This document shows positions 2,243-64,000 of a stretch of DNA of 64,000 bases, piece by piece (position 1 is the stretch's first letter; each line of letters begins with the position of its first letter). The notes under the pieces are model-generated. The model did not search any database and had not been told where the DNA came from. It saw nothing but the letters and a program-made list of their open reading frames with translations. The translations under genes and the position numbers were made by a program. The stretch is from assembly GCA_029261065.1 (NCBI GenBank), contig JAJDCB010000006.1, positions 64,284-128,283 on the forward strand, written 5' to 3'. This DNA comes from Candidatus Omnitrophota bacterium. GTDB lineage: Bacteria > Omnitrophota > Gorgyraeia > Zapsychrales > Zapsychraceae.

Positions 2243-3412
2243 TTATTTTTTTACTGCAGAGACAATGTTTTCCACATAATTTTTGTCTAAAATATTTGGC
2301 AAGACTTTATCTCTCGATAACTTGTCAACGCTCTGGGCTAAAGCATAGGCCGCAGCGACTTTCATCTCTCTCGTAATCTGTGGAGCTTTAGCTCCAAGCG
2401 CGCCTTTAAAAACACCAGGAAATACTAAGGCATTGTTCACTTGATTCGGATAATCGCTACGTCCTGTTCCGATAATAAAAGCTCCGGCTTTCTCAGCGTC
2501 CTTTGGGTCTATCTCAGGGGTTGGATTGGCCATGGCAAACACGATTGGTTTCTCACCCATGCTTTTAATCATCTCTTGTGTTACCACATTTCCAACACTT
2601 ACACCGATAAAAACATCAGCCTCTTTAATCGCGTCTGATAATAGACCTTTAACATTCTTACGATTCGTCAATCGAGCAAGTTTCTTTTTACTAAAGTCGG
2701 TGGCAATATCTTTTCTGGAATGAGAAATGATTCCCTTTGAATCACACACTAATAATTGTTTAACCGGTTGGCACACGTCCTTTTCTTGCCCCACACATAA
2801 AAGCAATTCAGCTATCGCTGTTCCGGCGGCCCCCGCACCGTTGATCACAACCTTTAATTCGCCAAGTTCCTTGCCTGCTAACTTAGCCGCATTAATTAAA
2901 GCCGCTAAAAGAACAATCGCCGTCCCATGCTGATCATCATGAAAAACGGGAATGCCTATATCTTGAAGAGATCCTTCAATCTCAAAGCATCGAGGTGCTG
3001 CGATATCTTCTAAATTAATCCCAGCAAATCCTGGAGCAATATTTTTAACGATGTTAATTATTTCAAACGCATTTTGCGTATTTAAACAAATGGGTACCGC
3101 ATTAATTCCGGCAAATTCTTTAAAGATCATGGCCTTGCCTTCCATAACAGGCAACGCCGCTTCAGGTCCAATATTACCCAAACCTAACACTGCAGAACCA
3201 TCCGTCACAATAGCGATCGTATCTTTCTTCATCGTCAATTCATAGGCACGTGCGGGATCTTTGTGGATAATCCTGCAAACTTCCGCCACACCTGGTGTAT
3301 AAACAAGAGAAAGCTCTTTCATCGTTTTAAGAGGCACTTTTGAATTAATACTTAACTTCCCACCTAACTTCTGATGATATTTAACAGACTCTTTATAAAT
3401 ATCCAATGGCAA
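2243..3412 (-). CDS. NAD(P)-dependent malic enzyme (short ~390-aa form)
   Basis: N-terminal LSLVYTPGVAEVC signature and Rossmann GAGAAG motif of malic enzymes. Confidence 0.85.
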   Translation of the reverse strand: MPLDIYKESVKYHQKLGGKLSINSKVPLKTMKELSLVYTPGVAEVCRIIHKDPARAYELTMKKDTIAIVTDGSAVLGLGNIGPEAALPVMEGKAMIFKEFAGINAVPICLNTQNAFEIINIVKNIAPGFAGINLEDIAAPRCFEIEGSLQDIGIPVFHDDQHGTAIVLLAALINAAKLAGKELGELKVVINGAGAAGTAIAELLLCVGQEKDVCQPVKQLLVCDSKGIISHSRKDIATDFSKKKLARLTNRKNVKGLLSDAIKEADVFIGVSVGNVVTQEMIKSMGEKPIVFAMANPTPEIDPKDAEKAGAFIIGTGRSDYPNQVNNALVFPGVFKGALGAKAPQITREMKVAAAYALAQSVDKLSRDKVLPNILDKNYVENIVSAVKK

Positions 3413-4913: not shown

Positions 4914-5347
4914 TTTTCAATAACGATATTTTTTATGACAGATAATAAGTCAAAAGGCGGTTCCGTATCAAAAATGGCCTCACCTGCTTTCAGAGTATTT
5001 TCTGACCCTCCTGGAGTAATTTCAATATATTTTTCACCTAATATTCCATTTGTTTTAATAGAGGCAATCGCATCATCCTGAATTTTGACATCTTCTTTTA
5101 GCGATAAGGTCACAACCGCTTGAAAATCCTCAAGTTCAATCTTCTCGACTTTCCCAACACGAACACCCGCAATTTCGACGTTGGAATCTTCTTTTAATCC
5201 AGAGGCAGATGTAAAAAACGCTTGGACAGAATAATCATTCACGCCAAAAATTTCAACCTTACCGAGGTGAATTGACAAATAGACCATACAGATCAAACCA
5301 AGACACACGAAAAGGCCCACCATAATTTCAACATTGGATTTTTTCAT
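4910..5347 (-). CDS. mlaD: MlaD (MCE-domain) protein
   Basis: 145 aa, N-terminal TM anchor followed by an MCE-like beta-rich domain; 4-bp overlap with mlaC and position after mlaF. Confidence 0.75.
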   Translation of the reverse strand: MKKSNVEIMVGLFVCLGLICMVYLSIHLGKVEIFGVNDYSVQAFFTSASGLKEDSNVEIAGVRVGKVEKIELEDFQAVVTLSLKEDVKIQDDAIASIKTNGILGEKYIEITPGGSENTLKAGEAIFDTEPPFDLLSVIKNIVIEK

Positions 5348-7013: not shown

Positions 7014-10000
7014 TTAGACTTCTTTTAAAGAAGGCGCAAACCACCCATAAAAGGCAGGCAAAGCCAATAACGTTAAAAATGTTGATGTGAAAAGCCCCCC
7101 AATAACAACCACCGCTAGGGGTCTTTGAATTTCTGATCCTGTTCCGCTTGAAAATACTAAGGGCAACAAACCTAATCCTGTCGTTAATGCTGTCATAAGC
7201 ACTGGTCTTAAACGCAATAAGGCCCCTTTGATAACTGTTTCATGGATTGAAAACCCCTCCGCTCTTAATTCATTAAAATATGTCACCAGAACTAGCCCAT
7301 TTTCTATAGCAATTCCAAAAAGAGCAATAAATCCAATGGAGGCAGGAACACTTAAGTTTAGATTAAATAATTTTAAGGAGATAATACCTCCTACCAAGGC
7401 TAAAGGAATATTGAGTAAGATCAAAAGGGCCATCTTCAAAGAATTAAATGACATAAACAGTAATAAAAATATTAACAATAACGTGACAGGAATAACAACT
7501 ATTAAACGTTTATTGGCTTGTTGTTGTAATTCGAACTGCCCTCCCCAATGAACAATATAACCAACAGGCAAATCAACTTGACTCTCTACTTTTTTCTGTG
7601 CTTCCTCAACAAATGTTCCAATATCACGACCACGCACATTACATTGAATGGTAATAAATCGTTGATTGTTCTCTCGACTAATTTGCCTTGGTCCAACAAC
7701 TGTTTTAATATCAGCCAACTGATCTAAAGGTATTTTTTGGCCACCTGGGGCATCCACCAACAAATTTTTTATCGCCTTAATATCTTTACGAAACTCTTTT
7801 TGAAACCTTGCATAGATAGCAAATTGTTTTTGCCCTTCATAAACAAGGCCAACTTCTTCTCCTCCGATTGCTACTTTAACAAGTTCTTGAACCTCCGACA
7901 CATTGATGCCGTAGCGTGCAATCTTTTCTCGATCAATAATAATCTGCACCTGAGGCTGTCCTGTGATTTGATCCACCTGTAAATCGGCAACCCCACGCAC
8001 ATCTTCAATGACCTCTTTTATTTCATCAGCCTTCTTCTTAAGAACCTCTAAATCAGAACCGAATAATTTAATGGCTAACTGTGCTTTAACACCAGAGACC
8101 AATTCATCAACAGCAACAGCAATGGGTTGGCTAAAATTAAGTTGAACTCCTGGAACTTGACCAACTTTCTCACTCATCTCCTCAACTAATTTCTCAGAAC
8201 TTATTTTTCGTTTCCATTTCTTTTGATCTTTTAACTCTATAAATATTTCCGAGTTATTGACCGGATCAGCATGAGCACCAATCTCTCCTCGTCCAATCCG
8301 TGATATGACATGCTTCACTTCATCAAACTTAAGAAACTCTTTCTCTAAAATGTTTACAACATTCACGGATTCTTTTAAAGATATACTTGGCGCCATAGTA
8401 GCCCTCACTAACATATCCCCTTCATTTAACTTAGGTATAAACTCTTTACCTAAAAACGGGAATATTACAAACCCTACGACTAATAGGACAACAGTAATCA
8501 GGACTGGAATTTTTTTGTGATGCACACACAACTTTAAGAAAGGTTCATACACTTTTTTTGCTTTCGCTATAATAAAATTTTCTTTTTCTTTTTTTCCATC
8601 TGACTTAATGATAAGAAAACACAAAGCAGGAGCCAATGTTAAAGAAAATATTAAAGATCCAACCATAGCAAAACTGATTGTATACGCTAAGGGTGTGAAC
8701 ATCTTTCCCTCAACGCCTTGAAGCGTAAAAAGCGGCAAGAAAACAATAATAATAATGGAGATGGCAAAGAAGATCGGTCGACTTACCTCATGACACGCCT
8801 CTCTAATAAGAGAACCTTTCTTTTCTAGTTTTGTTTTCTCTTCAAAAAAACGATAGACATTCTCAACGATAACAATAGAGGCATCCACCATCATTCCAAT
8901 ACCAATAGCTAATCCCCCCAAACTCATAAGGTTAGCTGAAATCCCCATATAACGCATACAAATGAATGCCCACAGAATAGAAAACGGTAAAGAAAGAACA
9001 ACAATCAAAGAGCTTCTCATATTACCCATAAAAAAGAACAATACTAAAGTAACCAAAACAATACCTTGAAACAATGCATTCTTAACTGTTGAGACACATT
9101 TTTCAACCAAATCGGCTTGATCATAATAAGGAACGAGCGTAACACCTTCTGGCAATATTTTATTGATCTCCCCTATCCGTTCCTTTACGGAATTAATAAC
9201 TTCTTGTGTATTTTCTCCAAATAATTTTAAAATAAAACCAATAACAATCTCACCCATACCATCTCTCGATGCTGTTCCTCTATTTATTTCTGCGCCAAAC
9301 TCAATATTAGCAACATCTCTTAAAAAGATAGGAGTATTCTCCTCTGTCTTTACAACAATCCCTTCTAAATCTTCTTTCGTCTCAACAAGACCAACACTAC
9401 GAACCAAAAACTCTTCTTCACCTTTTTCAAGAAATGACGCTCCAACATTTAAGTTATTTTCTTCTACAGCTGTAACAATATCGTGTAGACTTAAATCCCA
9501 TTTGATCATACGATTTGGATCGACCAACACTTGATACTGTTTTACTTCACCCCCAATACTTAATATTTCAGTAACGCCTGGTAATGTTTGTAAATTAAAC
9601 TTAATAATCCAATCTTGAATGGTTCGTAATTCCTTACCATCATATTCTGTCCCACCTTTGCTGAGCGCAGTCGAAGCATCTAGATAGTAAAATAACACCT
9701 GCCCCATTCCCGTCGTAATCGGGCCCATTGCAGGCTCTCCTAAACCTTCAGGTAAAGATTCTTTTGCTTGAGCTAAACGTTCTTGCACCAATTGCCTTGC
9801 AAAATAAATATTAACATCATCTTCAAAATAGATATTTACGATAGAAAGACCAAAATTTGAAACAGATCTAATTTTCTTAAGATCTGGCAAACCATTCATA
9901 GATACTTCGACTGGATAAGTAATGAGTTTTTCAACTTCTTGGGGAGCTAACCCTTCTGTTTCTGTAAAAACTTGAACAAGAGTTGGCGTAACATCAGGAA

Positions 10001-12448: not shown

Positions 12449-12712
12449 TTATGAATTGGAAATGGGGGGGCGAAACGCGGTAGGAAGGATGGGTTCTTCG
12501 TAAGAAAAATCTTGAGCAGAAAAAAATGATGTGGTAACTTTTGGTAAATTTAAAGATTGATCACTTGTTAAGATAGCTCCATGACAAGACCCATGGCAAA
12601 TCACAATACCATGATGATGCTCCGTTTCCTCATTATGATCCGCACAGAATGCATCAAGTGGTATAAAGGAAACCACAAGGGCGATCAGAATTAGGATTCT
12701 TAAGAATTTCAT
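12449..12712 (-). CDS. Small secreted His/Cys-rich protein (family member A), putative periplasmic metal-binding or regulatory protein
   Basis: 87 aa; signal peptide, HHHGIVICHGSCHG motif, C-terminal DFSYEEPILPTAFRPPISNS; close paralogue at 48830..49111; sits at the head of the czcCBA operon. Confidence 0.55.
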   Translation of the reverse strand: MKFLRILILIALVVSFIPLDAFCADHNEETEHHHGIVICHGSCHGAILTSDQSLNLPKVTTSFFSAQDFSYEEPILPTAFRPPISNS

Positions 12713-30321: not shown

Positions 30322-30436
30322 AAAATGACATTAACGGTTAACAAAAGTTATATGAGTCATTATATATGACTACTCATATAAATAGAAATATTATCCAAAA
30401 TACAAAAGTTCCTTAGATTCTGAATAATTTTTCCAA

Positions 30437-30590
30437 CCTTCAGGTTATGAGGACGTTATATGACTATGCTTATATTTTCTTGTTTTTATTAATGTTATCT
30501 ACTGGTAGGCTTTACAAAAAATTGATTTGCTGATATTTACTGCTTTTTGACTGTTAGCAGGCTTGTTTTGTTACACATAAGTTATCACTT
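30437..30590. repeat. Upstream element R1: block CCTTCAGGTTATGAGGACGTT plus three phased heptamers (TTTGCTG, TTTACTG, TTTGACTG) and TTGTTACACATA
   Basis: The same blocks occur at 37296..37380 and 43345..43440, in the same orientation relative to the downstream minus-strand genes. Confidence 0.6.
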
Positions 30591-30607
30591 TAAAATAACC
30601 CTTATGA

Positions 30608-37295: not shown

Positions 37296-37380
37296 TTAAT
37301 TTACTGGTGTTTACTGCTGTTTGCTTATTATCAGGCTTATTGTGTTACATATATGTTATCGCGTTTTTTCAAATTTTGCT
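37296..37380. repeat. Upstream element R2: three TTTACTG/TTTACTG/TTTGCTT heptamers at exact 10-bp spacing plus TTGTGTTACATATATGTTATCGC
   Basis: Same family as 30437..30590 and 43345..43440. Confidence 0.6.
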
Positions 37381-43172: not shown

Positions 43173-43344
43173 TTTCCTTCTTTACTCAAAGTCATTAGCC
43201 CCTCTTGGAATTTCGTTAAAGCATCGAAATTCCTAAACAAAATTAATATGACCTATCATACTCTTTATTTGAGATATTGCAAAATTGGAAGACAAGAACA
43301 GGCGAGATCTCAGCATCCACAAGCTACACGGAAACCACTGCGAC

Positions 43345-43440
43345 CTTCAGGTTATAAGAACGTTCAAAGTCTTTGCTGGTGTTTGCTGGTATTTACTTGT
43401 TCTCACGCCTGTTTTGTTACACATACTTTATCGCATTTTC
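43345..43440. repeat. Upstream element R3: CCTTCAGGTTATAAGAACGTT block, three heptamers (TTTGCTG, TTTGCTG, TTTACTT) at 10-bp spacing, TTGTTACACATACTTTATCGC
   Basis: Same family as R1 and R2; its 3' end overlaps the stop codon of the znuB-like gene. Confidence 0.6.
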
Positions 43441-48829: not shown

Positions 48830-49111
48830 CTATGAAATAGAGATTGGGGGGCGATGCTCTGTAGGTAAGACCGGCTCATCGTAGAAAAAATCTTGAGCCG
48901 AGAAGAAATGTGTGGATACTTCCGGTAAATTAATAGATTGCCTACTACTCAAAACCGCCCCAGAACATGCAAAATGACATAATACAATTCCATGCTGATG
49001 CTCCGTCTCCTCATGATGATCTTCGCAAAACGCGTCGAGCTGCAGGGAGGATACGACGAGGGCAATTAGAATTATGCTTTTTAAGAACTTCATAACACGA
49101 TCAGGATACAT
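48830..49111 (-). CDS. Small secreted His/Cys-rich protein (family member B)
   Basis: 93 aa; roughly 60 percent identical to 12449..12712 over signal peptide, EHQHGIVLCHFACSG and C-terminal DFFYDEPVLPTEHRPPISIS. Confidence 0.55.
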   Translation of the reverse strand: MYPDRVMKFLKSIILIALVVSSLQLDAFCEDHHEETEHQHGIVLCHFACSGAVLSSRQSINLPEVSTHFFSAQDFFYDEPVLPTEHRPPISIS

Positions 49112-56380: not shown

Positions 56381-57874
56381 TTACCTTGGTTGCATCCATC
56401 CCGGTAAAAACGAATAAGGATCAACCGTACTTAATTCATCAAAGCTAACATTACTATCTCTTAGTTGCCCTTGTAACACCTTACTATTGTAGGAATCAAA
56501 AAGATCGGTACATCCACCAATAAATTTTCCGCCAATAAATATTTGGGGAATAGTTTTGCATCCTGTCTTAGCTGTAAGAGCGGCACGAATGCGACCGCCC
56601 CAATCATCATCTTGATAAGCAACAGAATCTAAATCAATAGAATTATACTCAATACCTAGTTTCTTAAACATTTTTCGAGCTGACCAACAAAACTCACACC
56701 ATTCTAAAGCAAAAAATGCGATAGGCTTACTATTATCACTAATAGCATCTTCAACAAACTTAACCGCCTTTTCGTCTAACTCAACAGGCACCTCTTTCTC
56801 TTTCTTTTCTGGTGGAGCCGGTGGTGGCGCATCAAATCGTGCCGTCGGTGTTGATCGAGAAATTTCAAGCTCTTGTTCTGTCATTTCTTCTGATATCTCA
56901 TAAAATAATGGTGTCGACAAATACCTTTCGCCGGTGTCTGGAAGCATAACCAGAATGTTTGAACCATCAGGTGCATCTTTTGCCACTTCAAGGGCACCGG
57001 CTAATGTTGCTCCAGCAGATACTCCAACAAAAATACCTTCTTTTTGTGCCAAGTCCATCGAACACTGCAAGGCTTTTTTACCCGCAATAGACACAAGTCG
57101 ATCAATCAATTTGCTATTAACTACATCTTCTGTTAATTGCGGAATAAAATCTGGAGACCATCCTTGCATTAAATGTGGCCGAAAACTAGGATGACTTTCT
57201 TCTATGCTTCCATCTGCATTTCTATTTTGTGAAATGCCACTTGCGAGCAACTGTGAATTATCCGGCTCGCAAACAATCACTTTTGTCTTTGGGCTTTTAT
57301 CCTTTAACACACGAGAAACACCTTTAAGCGTTCCGCCCGTTCCAAACCCTGTCACCCAATAATCTAATTGTGTATCTTTAAAATCTTCCAAAAGTTCTTC
57401 TGCTGTTGTACGTGAATGTATATCAGCATTTGCTTCGTTTTCAAACTGTCGTGTCAAATACCAGCCATTCTTTTGAGCCAGTTCAACAGCTTTATCAAGC
57501 ATGCCTTTTCCTTTTAAAAAAGCAGGCGTTAAAACAACTTGAGCGCCAAGAAAACGCATAAGTTTTCGTCTTTCTACGCTAAAACTTTCGGCCATAACAA
57601 TAACAAGAGGATAACCTTTTTGAGCACAAACCATTGCTAAACCAATTCCTGTATTTCCACTTGTTGCCTCAATCACAGTTTGTCCTGGCTTTAGATCCCC
57701 CGATTTCTCAGCGGCTTCAATCACACCTAAAGCTAAACGATCTTTGATCGAGCTCATCGGATTAAATGATTCTAGCTTCACAAAAATATTAACGTTTTGA
57801 GGTGTTAACTTGCTAATTTTAACAACGGGTGTATTCCCAATTGTTTCAAGAATGTTAGAATACCTATGCCCCAT
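56381..57874 (-). CDS. Cysteine synthase (CysK/CysM-type PLP enzyme) fused to a C-terminal glutaredoxin-like domain
   Basis: N-terminal SIKDRLALGVIEAAE...TSGNTGIGLAM; Pro-rich linker; C-terminal CEFC active site and TIPQIFIGGKFIGGCTDL typical of glutaredoxins. Confidence 0.75.
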   Translation of the reverse strand: MGHRYSNILETIGNTPVVKISKLTPQNVNIFVKLESFNPMSSIKDRLALGVIEAAEKSGDLKPGQTVIEATSGNTGIGLAMVCAQKGYPLVIVMAESFSVERRKLMRFLGAQVVLTPAFLKGKGMLDKAVELAQKNGWYLTRQFENEANADIHSRTTAEELLEDFKDTQLDYWVTGFGTGGTLKGVSRVLKDKSPKTKVIVCEPDNSQLLASGISQNRNADGSIEESHPSFRPHLMQGWSPDFIPQLTEDVVNSKLIDRLVSIAGKKALQCSMDLAQKEGIFVGVSAGATLAGALEVAKDAPDGSNILVMLPDTGERYLSTPLFYEISEEMTEQELEISRSTPTARFDAPPPAPPEKKEKEVPVELDEKAVKFVEDAISDNSKPIAFFALEWCEFCWSARKMFKKLGIEYNSIDLDSVAYQDDDWGGRIRAALTAKTGCKTIPQIFIGGKFIGGCTDLFDSYNSKVLQGQLRDSNVSFDELSTVDPYSFLPGWMQPR

Positions 57875-58033: not shown

Positions 58034-58432
58034 TTAAAAACTCAATGTCGCTGCTCCATTTTTAATCAGTTCATGCATAGGACTAGCACCTGTAATAATA
58101 GCACCTTCAATAAAATCTTCTTGTGTATAGCCTCTAGCACTAACACACGGTTTACATACCCACAAGGCACCCTCACGCTTTAAAAAATCAGCAACCAAAT
58201 CTTTAATCAATTCCAGTGGATGATGTTGCACTTGATTGCATGAATTTTTCCGAACAAGGTCAACTCCATCACCCGTTAAAAATATAGACACCTTAAGACC
58301 AGCCGTAATCCCACCATTGGCAATAGTACATCCAATAGAAGCTTTCTCTTCATGCGGCCCGCTTGAGATAACTACAACTAAATTTCTTTCATCAGCCATT
58401 ATCACTTTCTCCTTTTTCTTGGTACCATTCAC
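58034..58432 (-). CDS. DsrE/DsrF-like family protein (tentative)
   Basis: ~120-aa core with the conserved Cys region WVCKPC; assignment is weak. Confidence 0.35.
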   Translation of the reverse strand: MNGTKKKEKVIMADERNLVVVISSGPHEEKASIGCTIANGGITAGLKVSIFLTGDGVDLVRKNSCNQVQHHPLELIKDLVADFLKREGALWVCKPCVSARGYTQEDFIEGAIITGASPMHELIKNGAATLSF

Positions 58433-58527
58433 TATAAAACTAGTATCTGAAGTTTTATTTGAAAATTATTCTAGCATATAAATTAAAAAAATAGCTGAAA
58501 TAACTGAGGGCACCGGACGGCTAACCC

Positions 58528-58625
58528 TCGAAAGACTAGAAGTGTCAGATCTCATATCTAACTATGAAATAAGGACTTATCTATTATTTCTTACTGTTTT
58601 CTCTTTTTATGCACACACTGGGTAC
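58528..58625 (+). mobile_element. Partial copy of the left half of the MITE-like element at 62789..62999
   Basis: AAGACTAGAAGTGTCAGATCTCATATCTAACTATGAAATAAGGACTTATCTAT aligns with 62785..62840. Confidence 0.65.
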
Positions 58626-58643
58626 CAAAATCAAATTTTAAAA

Positions 58644-59615
58644 TTACAATTTATCCAAATATTTTAAGACCTTATCCATAATTTCATTTAACGAAATTTG
58701 TCCCTGATAATACAAAGCCGACGTTTTTTTATATTCTTTTTCAAAGATTTCTCTTGTTGCTGTGTCTTTCAGCAAAAATGCCTCTTGTTCAAATATTGGA
58801 ACTTCCAAGTCTTTTGCATAAAACCTTTTTTTCTTATGTTTTTTGTATTCTTCTGTACCAATGAATTTCTGAACAATGTCATTATCAAAAAGACACGCAA
58901 CATCATAATAATGCCTTAAAAAATTGGTGGGCATTTCCCCTTCATCTTGAAATTTTCGAAACTTCGCTGCAATCGTTTGTAATTTCTCAACAAATGTATA
59001 TCCTGGATGATAACATTTCACGTTATGCGCTTTATTATCTATGACCTCAACACCCTTTTGTTGAGCAAATTCAAGAGCCCAAGAACTAATCGTTAAAGGA
59101 CTGTTAGGCGTGACATCATCAAAACCAACTTCAAGCAAAACTCCTTCTTTTAATCCGCCTGCTCGAGGAAAGGCATCCTTGTAATAAAGGCCAATCCCTC
59201 CACTTGTATATTTTTCATTATCAAACTCTGTGTTACGAACTATTTTCTCTATTCCGTCAATCTTAATATTTTTCGCAAGCCAATCGTAGTAATTCTTGCG
59301 GCCTTCACAATGCTGTGGTTTAGTATGATTTTTTCCTGTCATAACATTCATATTAGAAGGTGGTTCAATACGAAGATCAATATCTTCGGAAAAACGATGA
59401 ATAATATTACACCCTTTGGAAAGCGATGTCCCACCTTTTAACTCAAACGTAAAACCCCCTTGTTGCAATCCATATAAAACATGCATTATCCAGTAGTCTT
59501 TTTCTATCAGACTACTATCAATGCCTTTTTCATGCTCTACTGTTCGCAAAAGTTGTTTAAATTCAGAATGATTATGCAAATAATCAGGCATGCCTAAAAC
59601 TCCTCTGACATCCAA
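58644..59615 (-). CDS. AbiEii/AbiGii-family nucleotidyltransferase toxin (type IV toxin-antitoxin)
   Basis: N-terminal KDYWIMHVLYGL...FELKGGTSLSKGCNIIHRFSEDIDL matches the AbiEii (DUF1814) nucleotidyltransferase motif. Confidence 0.7.
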   Translation of the reverse strand: MDVRGVLGMPDYLHNHSEFKQLLRTVEHEKGIDSSLIEKDYWIMHVLYGLQQGGFTFELKGGTSLSKGCNIIHRFSEDIDLRIEPPSNMNVMTGKNHTKPQHCEGRKNYYDWLAKNIKIDGIEKIVRNTEFDNEKYTSGGIGLYYKDAFPRAGGLKEGVLLEVGFDDVTPNSPLTISSWALEFAQQKGVEVIDNKAHNVKCYHPGYTFVEKLQTIAAKFRKFQDEGEMPTNFLRHYYDVACLFDNDIVQKFIGTEEYKKHKKKRFYAKDLEVPIFEQEAFLLKDTATREIFEKEYKKTSALYYQGQISLNEIMDKVLKYLDKL

Positions 59616-60175
59616 TGATTAAACTTATTTTTTGTTCTTTCCCCTGCATATGCATTAAAAGCTCTTTTCATTTGTGATTCAGACTCTTGCAAAACTTTTT
59701 CCTTAACATTTTGTAATATATACTCTCTATCTTCAGCCAATTCATTTAAATTATTCAACAAATCAACTAACAAAAACGCTCTTGAAAGTTTTCTAGGAAA
59801 TTTATGCTTTAAATGAAAATCAAACACTTTTCCTCCAAGCATAAATTGACCATGTCGTTTATGATTATAAACAACTCTTTTATTATATAATTGTGTTGTT
59901 CCGACTCCTAAAGAATTATACAAATTAGGTGTCGTCAAAAGAAAGTCATCACTCTTTAAAAAAACACTCACAAGTTTTTCATCTTCAGGTGGTACATTCC
60001 CAAACGATGCCTTCACAGGATAATAGTACAATCCTTGTGCCAACCTTTGCAAAGTTTCCTCTTCTACAAGTTGTTTTAAATGTCTATCTACGGCATTTGA
60101 CCATTTCTCAAGATCACTTCTGCGATAAACTTGTCCTGGTTTCAGATGTTTTTTTAGCCTTTCAAGTGTATTCAT
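59594..60175 (-). CDS. AbiEi-like antitoxin/transcriptional regulator (tentative)
   Basis: ~190 aa; overlaps the AbiEii gene by 22 bp in the canonical antitoxin-toxin order. Confidence 0.5.
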   Translation of the reverse strand: MNTLERLKKHLKPGQVYRRSDLEKWSNAVDRHLKQLVEEETLQRLAQGLYYYPVKASFGNVPPEDEKLVSVFLKSDDFLLTTPNLYNSLGVGTTQLYNKRVVYNHKRHGQFMLGGKVFDFHLKHKFPRKLSRAFLLVDLLNNLNELAEDREYILQNVKEKVLQESESQMKRAFNAYAGERTKNKFNHWMSEEF

Positions 60176-60389
60176 TTTTGCCTCCTCCTACACTACAAGT
60201 ATAAAACCTTTTCCAGTAAATTGCAAGCTTTTTAATTTAAGTTTCATGCAATTATATCAACAACTTATTAGTTCAAACATTGAATTTACCGAACCTATCA
60301 AACCATGAATAATATATAAGTATATGCAATGTAATAAGTTGCGCATATCTATTGTTATGAAGACTAAAAGACCAAAAATTTTTGCGGAA

Positions 60390-60402
60390 GACTAGAAGTG
60401 TC
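60390..60402 (+). repeat. Solo copy of the MITE terminal repeat core GACTAGAAGTGTC (plus a degenerate GAAGACTAAAAGACC just upstream)
   Basis: Exact 13-mer shared with 58534, 61716 (inverted), 62973 and 62987 (inverted). Confidence 0.6.
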
Positions 60403-60424
60403 GTGCCGTTTTCAATTAAATTAT

Positions 60425-61660
60425 TTATGACTTCAAAGCTTGAAAATCAGCTCCTGTTGGATTTTGAAAAACACGTAAATCGAACTCAGGAATAACCGCT
60501 AAGATATGATCAAAAATATCAGCTTGAATGGCTTCATAATTCGCCCAGACTTGGTCATTACTGAAAACGTATATCTCAATTGGTAAACCATGTTCACTCG
60601 GGGCTAAATGTCGAACAAGAAATGTCATCTCCTTATGGATCTTGGGATGGTTGCGCAAATAATTGATAATATAAGCGCGGAGAGTTCCGATATTTGTTAA
60701 ACGCCGACCATTAATCAACTCATCGGCATCTATATCTTTGACTTTATTAAAGTCCGTTATCTCCTTTGTTTTTTCTTTGAGATAATCTTTTAAAAATTCA
60801 AACTTTTCAAACTTCTTTGAAAGATCTTCATCAACAAATTTGATGGAATTCATATCAATATTAAAAGACCGTTTGATCCTGCGTCCACCAGATTCTTGCA
60901 TGCCCCGCCAATTTTTAAATGAATCTGAAATCAAAGCATATGTTGGAATCGTCGTGATTGTTTTATCCCAATTTTTCACCATGACTGTTGTTAAGGTCAT
61001 ATCAATAACATCTCCATCAGCACCATAGTTAGGCATTTCTATCCAATCCCCACGCGCTACCATATTATTGGAAGTCAATTGAATACCCGCGACCAATCCC
61101 AAAATCATATCCTTAAAAATTAACAGTAGGACTGCGGTTAAACCACCAAAAACACTTAAGAATCCCCAAGGCGATTTATTCATTAAAGTGGAAATGACAA
61201 ACAATACTGTTAAGAAGTACACGATTATTTTGACGGCCTGAAGATAGCCTTTAATCGGTCTTTTACGTGAGGAATCAAAGCGTTGATAGATAATTAAGAC
61301 AGCATCCAATATGGCACCAAATACCCAACATGCCACTATAATCATATAGGCATTAGCCAGACGTTTGATCACATCCATAATCGTTGGGGATGCTTCTAAC
61401 CACACTGGAGCTAAAAAATAAATCAAAAACGCGGGGGCAAAATGCGATACATTCTTAAAAACATCCTTCTCAACAAAAACATCATCCCAATCATTTTTCG
61501 TTTTACGAATAAGGGCTCTGACTAAACGTAAAATAGAATTTTTTGCAATAACGTTAACAACCCAACATAAAATCAATAAAACGATGATCTTAATCGCAAC
61601 GATGATCGACCCTACATATTGTTCAGGAATACCGCTCTGAGTTATCCAATTCTGTAACAT
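60425..61660 (-). CDS. MscS-family mechanosensitive channel
   Basis: N-terminal TM helices and the conserved MscS beta-domain (GDWIEM...GDVIDMTLTTVMVKNWDKTITTIPT). Confidence 0.8.
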   Translation of the reverse strand: MLQNWITQSGIPEQYVGSIIVAIKIIVLLILCWVVNVIAKNSILRLVRALIRKTKNDWDDVFVEKDVFKNVSHFAPAFLIYFLAPVWLEASPTIMDVIKRLANAYMIIVACWVFGAILDAVLIIYQRFDSSRKRPIKGYLQAVKIIVYFLTVLFVISTLMNKSPWGFLSVFGGLTAVLLLIFKDMILGLVAGIQLTSNNMVARGDWIEMPNYGADGDVIDMTLTTVMVKNWDKTITTIPTYALISDSFKNWRGMQESGGRRIKRSFNIDMNSIKFVDEDLSKKFEKFEFLKDYLKEKTKEITDFNKVKDIDADELINGRRLTNIGTLRAYIINYLRNHPKIHKEMTFLVRHLAPSEHGLPIEIYVFSNDQVWANYEAIQADIFDHILAVIPEFDLRVFQNPTGADFQALKS

Positions 61661-61715
61661 ATTAAAAGCTCCTTTTAAATGGTTCTGTAAAAGTTTTAAG
61701 AATTCTTATTTTGCT

Positions 61716-61728
61716 GACACTTCTAGTC
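61716..61728 (-). repeat. Solo inverted copy of the MITE terminal repeat core (GACACTTCTAGTC)
   Basis: Reverse complement of GACTAGAAGTGTC; flanks the MscS gene in inverted orientation relative to the copy at 60390. Confidence 0.6.
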
Positions 61729-61738
61729 TTCCTATTAT

Positions 61739-62743
61739 TTATTTACTTATGAAATAGGGCAAATCGACACGACTACGACCCTTATCGTCAAATGAAAAAC
61801 CAAAATCATACTCTGAGGACGAACTAAATTCGACCTTATCGTAAAAGCCCGGATCCGATGAATAGCCTTGCAATTTATTGTAAAGCTTCTTAGATCCATA
61901 AGGCCAATTTTGCCCTACAATCACTCCAGGAATTTGACCACACCCTACCTCAGCCTCAACAAACGTTTCACGTTTGGCTGCATTAAGTAATGCGTAGCGC
62001 TTAATATGCTCATCAGCCCTTTTTGTCTTTTTAAATTTATTGAGCTTCAATACTTCGACAAGATATGTAATATCATTACTCTTAATCTGGCCAGCCTGAT
62101 TATAATCAACTTTTGTCACTTTGACTTTTTGAATAACATATTCTTTTTTGCATCGAGGTGCTTCAACATAATTATAAAACAGAAAAAAGAATTGATTATT
62201 CTTATAGCTTTTCGCATATCTTTTATTAAGCACACTATTATAATTTAAACCCGCCTTCTTGGCTAAAGGCACATTTTTCTTGTAGGCTACAGTCTCTTTG
62301 TACGGTTTTGGCATCGTAACTTTTCCCGAATTAGAGTTTAGCTTTTCCATACCATCTTTGATGGTTGGCGCGGTGATCTTCACCCCTCGCTTAGGATTCT
62401 TTTTCCTAACTCTCTTCTTTGGTTGATTTTGTGATTGAGGAACCGTATCGACACGACTCTCTTTGGGCTCTTGAGAAAAATATCTTTGCTGACCTTGAGC
62501 GACCTTTTTCTTAAAAAGGGTACCTGCGCTTACCTTTGGAACAATTGATTTCTTTATGCTTTCAATGTCATCTAAATAATACGTTATACCAACGCCTACG
62601 CCCAAATCAACCTTAATGAACTCATTCGTTTGCTCTACAATTTTACCTTCAACTGTATCTCCAGACTTAAACTGAATAGTTTCTGCATGACTAGCTATTG
62701 TGATGAGTAAAAATGAAGAAATTACGAGGAATTTATTACGCAT
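61739..62743 (-). CDS. Secreted lysine-rich hypothetical protein
   Basis: Signal peptide, highly basic central region, no recognisable domain; bounded by terminal-repeat copies. Confidence 0.35.
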   Translation of the reverse strand: MRNKFLVISSFLLITIASHAETIQFKSGDTVEGKIVEQTNEFIKVDLGVGVGITYYLDDIESIKKSIVPKVSAGTLFKKKVAQGQQRYFSQEPKESRVDTVPQSQNQPKKRVRKKNPKRGVKITAPTIKDGMEKLNSNSGKVTMPKPYKETVAYKKNVPLAKKAGLNYNSVLNKRYAKSYKNNQFFFLFYNYVEAPRCKKEYVIQKVKVTKVDYNQAGQIKSNDITYLVEVLKLNKFKKTKRADEHIKRYALLNAAKRETFVEAEVGCGQIPGVIVGQNWPYGSKKLYNKLQGYSSDPGFYDKVEFSSSSEYDFGFSFDDKGRSRVDLPYFISK

Positions 62744-62788
62744 TTGGGTATTCTAAAGGTCTAGGTGAGATGTGTCAATTCGTAAAGA

Positions 62789-62999
62789 GACTCGAAGTGT
62801 CAGATCTCCTATCTAATTATGAAATAAGAATTTATCTATCATCTCCTTCTTACTTTTACTTAGGTTACTCACACAGACGCGTGTGGATAAATCATTATTT
62901 TAATCCTGGCCCTTAATTCTTCTATTCAATAATCTCAGCTATCTTTACTTTTTTCAATGAGTTGAGAGATCTGACACTTCTAGTCCGACACTTCTAGTC
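62789..62999. mobile_element. MITE-like element of ~211 bp bounded by 20-bp terminal inverted repeats GACT(A/C)GAAGTGTCAGATCTC, right end duplicated
   Basis: Left end GACTCGAAGTGTCAGATCTC (62789..62808); right end GAGATCTGACACTTCTAGTC (62966..62985) plus an extra GACACTTCTAGTC (62987..62999); non-palindromic interior with no ORF. Confidence 0.65.
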
Positions 63000-63020
63000 T
63001 TTTCTTTCTACTGCTCTCAA

Positions 63021-63425
63021 TTATGTCGCGACCGGATTTTGATCCTTAACAAATAATGGGAGCGATGTCTCATTTCTGCTGTCAATAGCTAAATCAATGG
63101 AATATACACCAAATTTTGGGATTTTCATTTGCTGTATATTAAAAATCATATTTGCAACACCTGATCTTTGGTCATCAGGAAATTTGATTTCAATTGCTCC
63201 ATTGGCTGCTGGTATTAAAGGTTTACCATCCAAATCAACAAAATTTACAGCAACGGCATGTCTACCACGTTCAATAGCAGTAAACCGAACTCTTAATGCG
63301 ATAGCGCATTGCGGGTATTGGATTGGCGTCTGCTTAGACCAAACAGTATCAAAGGCTCCCAAAATATTCAACTTTCCTCTTTGATCTGTCGCTGCATCAC
63401 ACAATGTAAAAATTTCAATATTCAT
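63021..63425 (-). CDS. Hypothetical protein (134 aa), no recognisable domain
   Basis: ORF only; cassette-like position between repeat copies. Confidence 0.3.
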   Translation of the reverse strand: MNIEIFTLCDAATDQRGKLNILGAFDTVWSKQTPIQYPQCAIALRVRFTAIERGRHAVAVNFVDLDGKPLIPAANGAIEIKFPDDQRSGVANMIFNIQQMKIPKFGVYSIDLAIDSRNETSLPLFVKDQNPVAT

Positions 63426-63563
63426 AATTCATTCTCCTTGTAATAATAGGGGTCAGCGCCCTAGCAGAAACTAGGAGCCTTGACCCTTTTCTCTGATACT
63501 GTTTTTCTTTCTGCTATAAATAACGTTTAATTATTCTTCTACTATCTTCCCTTTTGAATATAT

Positions 63564-63956
63564 CTAGTATGGACCAGTATATTCAAGAACAATTAATTGA
63601 TTTGCTTCAAGATTAAATTTTCTACTCGACGTAATCCCAAATGGGCCTACAGGATGCAATTTTACAATATGACTTCCTTCATCTAAAGTAATTGTTGTAT
63701 TACTATGTTTTGATACAACCAAAGGATCGAAGTCATCAATCTCAATAATATAACTCTTAAGCATATACTGTATGCTAGGGGGGCGACATAAAACTTTTAA
63801 TTCACCAGAGCTTAAACTATTCGATAAATCAAAATCATAGGCACTCCTTGTAACTTCTGACATGCCTAATCTTTTTTCATACTCTCTTGTTGCACACCCG
63901 CTGACAAAAATAATAATCACTAAAAAATATATCAATCGTTTCATCACCCCCCCCAC
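63564..63956 (-). CDS. Putative lipoprotein (130 aa)
   Basis: Signal peptide with lipobox VSGC. Confidence 0.4.
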   Translation of the reverse strand: MGGVMKRLIYFLVIIIFVSGCATREYEKRLGMSEVTRSAYDFDLSNSLSSGELKVLCRPPSIQYMLKSYIIEIDDFDPLVVSKHSNTTITLDEGSHIVKLHPVGPFGITSSRKFNLEANQLIVLEYTGPY

Positions 63957-64000
63957 ATTTGTTACAAAAACAAAAAAAGAAAAGTGCCAGATTTTTACTT

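Follow-up and report, generated by a model that had tools for sequence, protein, structure and literature searches.

We analysed a 64-kb window (64,000 nucleotides) of contig JAJDCB010000006.1, from an uncultured bacterium labelled Candidatus Omnitrophota, and describe here the tail of this window, where a 13-nt motif recurs in the gaps between genes and where one gene, encoding an MscS-family mechanosensitive channel, is enclosed by a perfect inverted repeat containing this motif. The genes of the tail are all on the minus strand. Read from high to low coordinates, they encode a lipoprotein, a DUF6941 family protein, a lysine-rich (Lys-rich) secreted protein, the MscS channel, the AbiEi antitoxin, the AbiEii toxin, a DsrE protein and a PALP domain fused to a glutaredoxin (PALP-glutaredoxin). 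Two repeat-bearing intergenic elements interrupt this order, element A between the DUF6941 and Lys-rich genes and element B between the AbiEii and DsrE genes. The two genes at the high-coordinate end had been listed as orphan open reading frames (ORFs) in an annotation made from the letters of the window alone (hereafter the first-pass annotation); one of them belongs to the DUF6941 family and the other encodes the lipoprotein. Beyond the window end, the next gene is a signal peptidase fragment. Coordinates of the main features are collected in Table 1.

The 13-mer GACTAGAAGTGTC was found six times in the window at no more than one mismatch, for a chance expectation of 0.68 matches, and a count of six was reached in 0 of 100 shuffles. 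With the 17-mer AAGACTAGAAGTGTCAG at up to three mismatches, we recovered the same six sites against 0.21 expected. These are also the positions and orientations that the first-pass annotation had given for the core. All six copies, numbered here from 1 to 6 by increasing coordinate, are intergenic and fall within 4.5 kb (58534-62999), a stretch of which intergenic DNA makes up about 18%. They occupy four gaps (DsrE/AbiEii, AbiEi/MscS, MscS/Lys-rich and Lys-rich/DUF6941); the earlier statement that the copies sit between the genes of the tail therefore stands for these gaps, but not for the one between the last two ORFs, which holds none. The motif is missing from about 45 other intergenic gaps of the window, including 11 that exceed 150 nt. 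It shows no dyad symmetry other than an internal AGATCT, and the solo copies fold no better than their shuffles, as expected for a transposon end and not for a repetitive extragenic palindromic (REP) unit or a terminator.

Copies 4 and 5 form the two ends of element A. Its 20-nt arms match at 19 of 20 positions, or over 30 nt at 83%, and enclose an AT-rich interior of 157 bp without any contained ORF of at least 40 aa, the only overlapping ORF starting outside the element. The first-pass annotation had described this element as 211 bp long with 20-bp terminal inverted repeats. We confirmed the terminal repeats and the non-coding interior, but the unit measures 197 bp, the longer figure having taken in the tandem core at 62987-62999. 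This extra core (copy 6) and its neighbour at 62973 represent a simple 14-nt tandem duplication. The arms of element A pair with each other in both RNA and DNA folds (z about -3), whereas the interior has no strong structure; no Rfam family was matched in the window, element A included. A small ORF inside the element (MIDKFLFHN) was dropped as its start codon is not kept in element B.

Element B starts with copy 1 and resembles the left end of element A, with no matching right end. The recurrence of the left half of element A at this place, previously given as 58528-58625, was recovered over a shorter extent of about 70 nt that does not reach 58625 (58533-58602 versus 62788-62860, with two indels; 63 nt at 86% without gaps). 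The 13-mer is identical in five of the six copies, whereas the adjoining sequence of A and B is just 86% identical, which suggests either a constraint on the core or a recent origin. A terminator-like hairpin stands directly outside copy 1 and could have served the upstream gene as its terminator until an inserted block displaced it; its position fits an insertion between the DUF6941 gene and its terminator. A 20-nt inverted match between 58638-58657 and 62884-62903 was borderline (reached by 6 of 500 shuffles) and overlaps the AbiEii stop codon; we took it as chance.

The MscS gene alone is enclosed by copies 2 and 3, which form a perfect 17-nt inverted repeat, GGAAGACTAGAAGTGTC, absent from the first-pass annotation. 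Inside this repeat, the unit holds only about 50 nt of the 5' flank of the gene and about 25 nt of its 3' flank. Homologues of this gene were found on five related contigs (L211-L215), with 85-89% identity at the amino acid level and 82-87% at the nucleotide level. Their neighbourhoods fall into three types (LemA-TPM, DUF2157, and DUF2617 with a Phd/PIN pair), and the motif is missing from all five contigs. The nucleotide homology to them spans at most 60396-61703, ending inside copy 2 on one side and 13 nt before copy 3 on the other, so that the arms of the inverted repeat lie at both breakpoints of MscS homology. The earlier notion of genes bounded by the repeat thus finds support for MscS, whose homology ends at the repeats and whose motif-free relatives are found in three contexts, but the orientations of the copies are mixed and, following the logic of transposon ends, the Lys-rich gene and the AbiE pair would fall outside the small units; the claim that each gene or gene pair is a bounded cassette thus describes the arrangement poorly.

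The MscS loci showed some further features. Immediately past the MscS stop codon, some 25 nt (TTTAATTGAAAACGGCAC.AC) are conserved in four contigs despite their different downstream neighbours (60403-60424 in the window, 7237-7262 in L212, 2999-3020 in L213 and 1555-1580 in L211). In L215 the MscS gene is followed by the Phd/PIN toxin-antitoxin pair (2429-3077), echoing the adjacency of MscS and AbiE in the window with a different toxin-antitoxin family. The MscS protein of the window shares 82% identity with a sequence labelled Candidatus Omnitrophota and 77-78% with others labelled Nitrospiria; such values are high for proteins of different phyla, and exceed the best identity of the PALP-glutaredoxin outside its lineage (68%).

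Read along the plus strand, the orientations of copies 1 to 6 are + + - + - -. When written for the gene strand with the outer end on the GACT side, as in element A, the order becomes > > < > < <, a balanced nesting of the form (()()), in which copies 5 and 4 bound element A, copies 3 and 2 bound MscS, and copies 6 and 1 would delimit an outer unit of 4.47 kb (58531-63002). Each of these pairs has its own flanks: copies 2 and 3 have GGAA in common outside the core, which makes them a perfect 17-mer, copies 1 and 6 have AAA in common outside the core (19 nt at 95%), and copies 4 and 5 have CAGATCTC in common inside it.

Table 1. Features of the repeat-bearing tail of the window (positions in the 64-kb window)
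Feature	Position	Strand	Remarks
Terminator-like GC-rich stem-loop followed by a U-rich run	58508-58531	-	4 nt outside copy 1; -13.1 kcal/mol, z = -2.3
Copy 1 and element B, truncated left-end copy	58531-58602	+	20-nt end GACTAGAAGTGTCAGATCTC at 58534-58553, then about 50 nt of subterminal sequence
AbiEii toxin (nucleotidyltransferase)	58644-59615	-	
AbiEi antitoxin (DUF6088)	59594-60175	-	
Possible 12-nt half-copy GAAGACTAAAAG	60359-60370		Read directly from the sequence
Copy 2, solo 17-mer GGAAGACTAGAAGTGTC, left arm of the MscS inverted repeat	60386-60402	+	22 nt past the MscS stop codon
MscS-family (miniconductance) mechanosensitive channel	60425-61660	-	Cargo of the inverted-repeat-bounded 1347-bp unit 60386-61732
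Copy 3, solo 17-mer, right arm of the MscS inverted repeat	61716-61732	-	6 nt past the Lys-rich stop codon; 56-72 nt upstream of the MscS ATG
Lys-rich secreted protein, without Pfam family	61739-62743	-	Only homologues 51-54% identical
Near-consensus promoter TTGACA-17-TAGAAT	62750-62778	-	Ends 6 nt before the Lys-rich ATG
Possible degenerate seventh copy GAATTGACACATCTC	62767-62781		Overlaps the -35 of the near-consensus promoter
Element A, MITE-like unit, 197 bp	62789-62985	+	Left end 62789-62808 (copy 4), right end 62966-62985 (copy 5)
Copy 6, tandem extra core CGACACTTCTAGTCTTT	62986-63002	-	13-mer core at 62987-62999; 18 nt past the DUF6941 stop codon
Copies of GACTAGAAGTGTC	58534, 60390, 61716, 62789, 62973, 62987	+, +, -, +, -, -	One mismatch (A->C) in the copy at 62789

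We give about even credence to the interpretation of these repeats as the ends of a decayed family of non-autonomous inverted-repeat elements, comprising a MITE (miniature inverted-repeat transposable element), a truncated copy, and an MscS unit of the mobile insertion cassette (MIC) type, possibly nested in a unit of 4.5 kb. Element A would be the MITE and element B a truncated copy of the same end, whereas MscS in its 17-nt inverted pair would have the anatomy of a MIC, in which ends of the insertion sequence (IS) type flank a passenger gene but no transposase. Copies 6 and 1, as the outer pair, would bound a unit carrying the Lys-rich gene and the AbiE pair, with the MITE and the MscS unit as later insertions into it. 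Movement of such units would require a transposase acting in trans and recognising the asymmetric end of 13-17 nt.

Bacterial MITEs include the Correia elements of Neisseria. Like other bacterial MITEs, such as the one with 17-bp terminal inverted repeats on the Aeromonas plasmid pAC3 (PMC5444012), element A is short, non-coding, AT-rich and intergenic, with imperfect pairing ends of 20-30 nt, and it adjoins a promoter to which it may contribute. It differs from them by the lack, in the available sequence, of a flanking target-site duplication, a second full copy, a dispersed family or a parent insertion sequence, and its end matches nothing in the plasmid collection or in exact-match scans of genome, metagenome and viral contigs. 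MICs are passenger genes flanked by IS-type or Tn3-type inverted repeats without transposase, as exemplified by the qnrS2 cassette with its 22-bp repeats (PMC5444012) and by the MICs of Xanthomonas carrying transcription activator-like effector (TALE) genes (PMC4337579). The MscS unit resembles them in that the gene and its minimal flanks lie, without a transposase, within IS-type inverted repeats whose core is common to the ends of the neighbouring MITE-like element and has the same outward orientation. Its cargo is, unlike theirs, a housekeeping-type channel of native composition, and we saw neither a target-site duplication nor a disrupted target gene nor a second location for the unit, the five other MscS loci being devoid of the repeats. 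MITEs and MICs are both internal-deletion derivatives of insertion sequences and have been found together at one locus, with the MITE inside the MIC (PMC5444012). The feature, which comes from an uncultured Gram-negative bacterium, is best filed with the MITEs and MICs, as a low-copy or relic member.

Several results weigh against this interpretation. We found no target-site duplication at any of the three putative units; the flanks of element A are AAAGA and CGACA, or TTTTC when the tandem core is included. No transposase, recombinase, integrase or invertase domain was detected among the window ORFs of at least 100 aa, no copy of the motif was found in the other 58 kb of the window, and none of the three units was seen at a second location among the data searched. 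As 5 of the 64 possible orientation patterns give a balanced order by chance, we take the nesting as no more than suggestive. In copy 2, the inner 7 nt (GACACTT) can be aligned with an MscS 3' flank that is conserved in three relatives (CACGCTT, CACATTT), and about half of this copy may thus be native MscS flank. The composition of the tail genes also gives no sign of foreign origin, their GC content and third-codon-position GC (GC3) lying within about 2 standard deviations of those of the other 47 genes, with AbiEi as a marginal exception (GC, z = -2.06).

The searches for relatives of the element point in the same direction. The genome, metagenome and viral contig collections that we scanned do not contain the source genome. 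In these, exact matches were lacking for the 20-nt end in both genome and metagenome contigs and for the 18-nt end in viral contigs; the 15-mer gave at least 120 single matches in metagenomes, which is the chance level, with no second copy or extended match among those listed. A profile of the translated A/B element, searched against 1.84 billion proteins, returned one match, a translated unrelated simple repeat, and blastn searches of element A and of its end against plasmids gave nothing meaningful. In an independent assembly of the same sequencing run (Logan contig, L001/L002), element A is crossed without a break, and both assemblies give the same order. Logan contigs are k=31 de Bruijn assemblies, and the unbroken contig thus implies that the rest of that genome holds no recent identical copy. 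Taken together, these points hold our confidence in the transposon-end interpretation at about the midpoint. Target-site duplications, a cognate transposase and further copies are what the first-pass annotation had proposed to look for; since the three units, the window ORFs of at least 100 aa, and the rest of the window and the three public collections, respectively, yielded none, and the composition is native, its wording of "independently acquired" cassettes, like any statement that they are mobile, can be kept only in the conditional.

Other explanations of the repeats have to be considered. At a hot spot of rearrangement, segmental duplication together with gene insertion and gene conversion could have copied and broken up one ancestral intergenic element, with no dedicated enzyme and with the bracketing of MscS as a coincidence. 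This scenario, which we consider unlikely, would agree with the lack of copies elsewhere in the data searched and of target-site duplications, with the 62973/62987 pair, a tandem duplication as from replication slippage, and with a partly native copy 2. However, neutral decay would not hold 13 nt identical in five copies beside neighbouring sequence at 86%, duplication alone could hardly place a perfect 17-nt inverted repeat at the two ends of MscS homology, and the pair-specific flanks suit paired ends. The position of some copies relative to promoters could otherwise suggest that the motif is the operator of a regulator co-ordinating stress and defence genes, the A/B similarity then being a duplicated promoter region: copy 4 lies upstream of the region's strongest promoter, at 11-23 nt from its -35, copy 3 lies a short distance upstream of the MscS ATG, and the core is strongly conserved. 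We regard this as very improbable, as position and orientation are inconsistent, with copy 2 immediately past the MscS stop codon and some 165 nt upstream of the abiE promoter, and copies 5 and 6 after the DUF6941 stop codon. An operator would also leave unexplained the inverted 20-30-nt ends of element A and the stop of MscS homology at the repeats; the motif is missing from the many other gaps of the window and was not found in 33 kb of a relative from the same sample. The similarity of A and B over about 70 nt, beyond a protein-sized site, favours a duplicated element over an operator.

The location of the copies exactly at module junctions and in both orientations raises, on the other hand, the question of site-specific recombination. 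The motif could be the target of a recombinase encoded elsewhere, producing shufflon-like inversion between inverted copies and excision between direct ones, which we judge rather unlikely; that the site would serve an unlinked recombinase assembling, inverting and excising whole-gene modules such as the toxin-antitoxin pair, the channel and the secreted protein at one chromosomal locus, independently of integrons, appears more doubtful still. The asymmetry of the motif, its perfect core in five of six copies despite diverged neighbouring sequence, the restriction of all copies to one locus without dispersal and the lack of target-site duplications, as expected of conservative recombination, all fit a recombinase target. 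The sfx sites of the R64 shufflon are asymmetric and 19 bp long, and the asymmetric short repeats described here, with their core of 13-17 nt, likewise separate segments within a few kilobases in both orientations. They differ from R64-type shufflons in having no adjacent recombinase and in that the segments are whole genes with their own promoters, not alternative 3' gene ends; no alternative arrangement was observed in the two assemblies of the one run, and the presence of every gene on the minus strand means that no inverted state is seen. The separation of accessory genes, including a toxin-antitoxin pair, by recurring short sequences also recalls integron arrays and the dif modules of Acinetobacter plasmids. 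The former have uniform and the latter alternating orientation, and the order observed here fits neither, nor tandem integration; an all-direct array could not have become mixed through the same recombinase. In addition, we found no recombinase domain in the window ORFs of at least 100 aa, no dif-like site, and no attC-type core pair in 58401-64000, and a short site alone would leave unexplained both the A/B similarity over 70 nt and the 197-bp unit.

We also tried and rejected several specific candidates. For an integron cassette array, there was no RYYYAAC ... GTTRRRY core pair on either strand of 58401-64000, in addition to the mixed orientations, and no integron integrase was present among the window ORFs of at least 100 aa, the next gene being the signal peptidase fragment. 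Xer/dif modules were dismissed as no match to the 28-bp dif consensus within 8 mismatches and no XerD arm were found, and as orientation does not alternate. REP units, bacterial interspersed mosaic elements (BIME) and REP doublets forming hairpins (REPIN) were likewise dismissed given the folding and symmetry of the solo copies and their confinement to the tail.

If the interpretation as non-autonomous transposon ends is true, the locus would be a small clean case in which such ends picked up an ordinary chromosomal gene, MscS, with minimal flanks, and would show how, in an uncultured lineage with few sampled genomes, such ends stack accessory genes at a single locus. Its practical value is limited: it would add a repeat family to the annotation of these genomes and offer a defined place at which read-level data could tell whether such units are still moving, and it has no bearing on a long-standing open question unless the recombination-site explanation is correct.

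The closest relative that we could reach through the PALP-glutaredoxin protein was contig L084 (83% amino acid identity; GCA_029261055.1), which comes from the same sequencing run. In L084, the DUF6941 gene is also upstream of the PALP-glutaredoxin gene, but entirely different genes (TetR, methyltransferase and OsmC) lie between these two anchors, and the motif was not found in 21 kb of this contig. As synteny with L084 is generally poor, this comparison, which bears on the presence or absence of individual cassettes raised by the first-pass annotation, indicates variability and nothing more. A scan of genome contigs with the PALP-glutaredoxin protein returned just relatives at no more than 68% identity, from many phyla. 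Contigs L084, L086, L088 and L210 were rejected as presence/absence references, being too diverged, and the DUF6941 gene of L210 is cut by the contig end.

Among the neighbouring genes, the AbiE pair is a typical plasmid-borne module, with homologues of 55-65% identity on plasmids of many taxa. The Lys-rich gene has no Shine-Dalgarno sequence, while MscS, AbiEi and DsrE have clear AGGAG sites; this, together with a promoter so close to the ATG, suggests that the Lys-rich transcript is leaderless. The PALP domain of the PALP-glutaredoxin protein (56381-57874) is cysteine-synthase-like, and the fusion is found at 62-68% identity in hundreds of genomes of many phyla. The genes of the window are those expected on a Gram-negative chromosome (Mla system, three RND efflux sets, OprB porin, Mip-like FKBP, phosphoenolpyruvate carboxylase), at a GC content of about 0.36. 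Across the 64 kb, about 55 ORFs of at least 100 aa resemble real genes, and the minus strand carries all of them; this strand bias is unusually complete, and the GC skew is negative throughout (-0.07 to -0.31).

Some other repeats were observed in the window and in related contigs. The motif TAATAGGGG(TC) is present in four copies, forming paired palindromes, in L213 (3038-3095 and 5526-5635), and once in the window (63444-63454) upstream of the DUF6941 gene, in a stretch partly conserved in L210; it may represent a REP-like family of this lineage. In metagenome contig L003, a 144-nt perfect inverted repeat (5035-5178 / 7775-7918) reaches the contig end and is probably an assembly artefact; the same contig carries three genes whose signal peptides begin almost identically. 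Three copies of about 70 nt that are 76-79% identical (30526-30591, 37300-37365 and 43372-43437, plus 30436-30488 / 43343-43395) make up a second repeat family in gaps of the window. On the gene strand it reads GATAAC.TATGTGTAACAAAACAAGCCTG...CAGCAAAT, and its copies lie just downstream of unrelated genes, without inverted ends. Finally, two small secreted proteins rich in histidine and cysteine, of 87 and 93 aa, are paralogous (12449-12712 and 48830-49111, both on the minus strand; 72% nucleotide identity). Both are encoded in long gaps, the first among RND efflux genes, and they may be periplasmic metal-binding partners.

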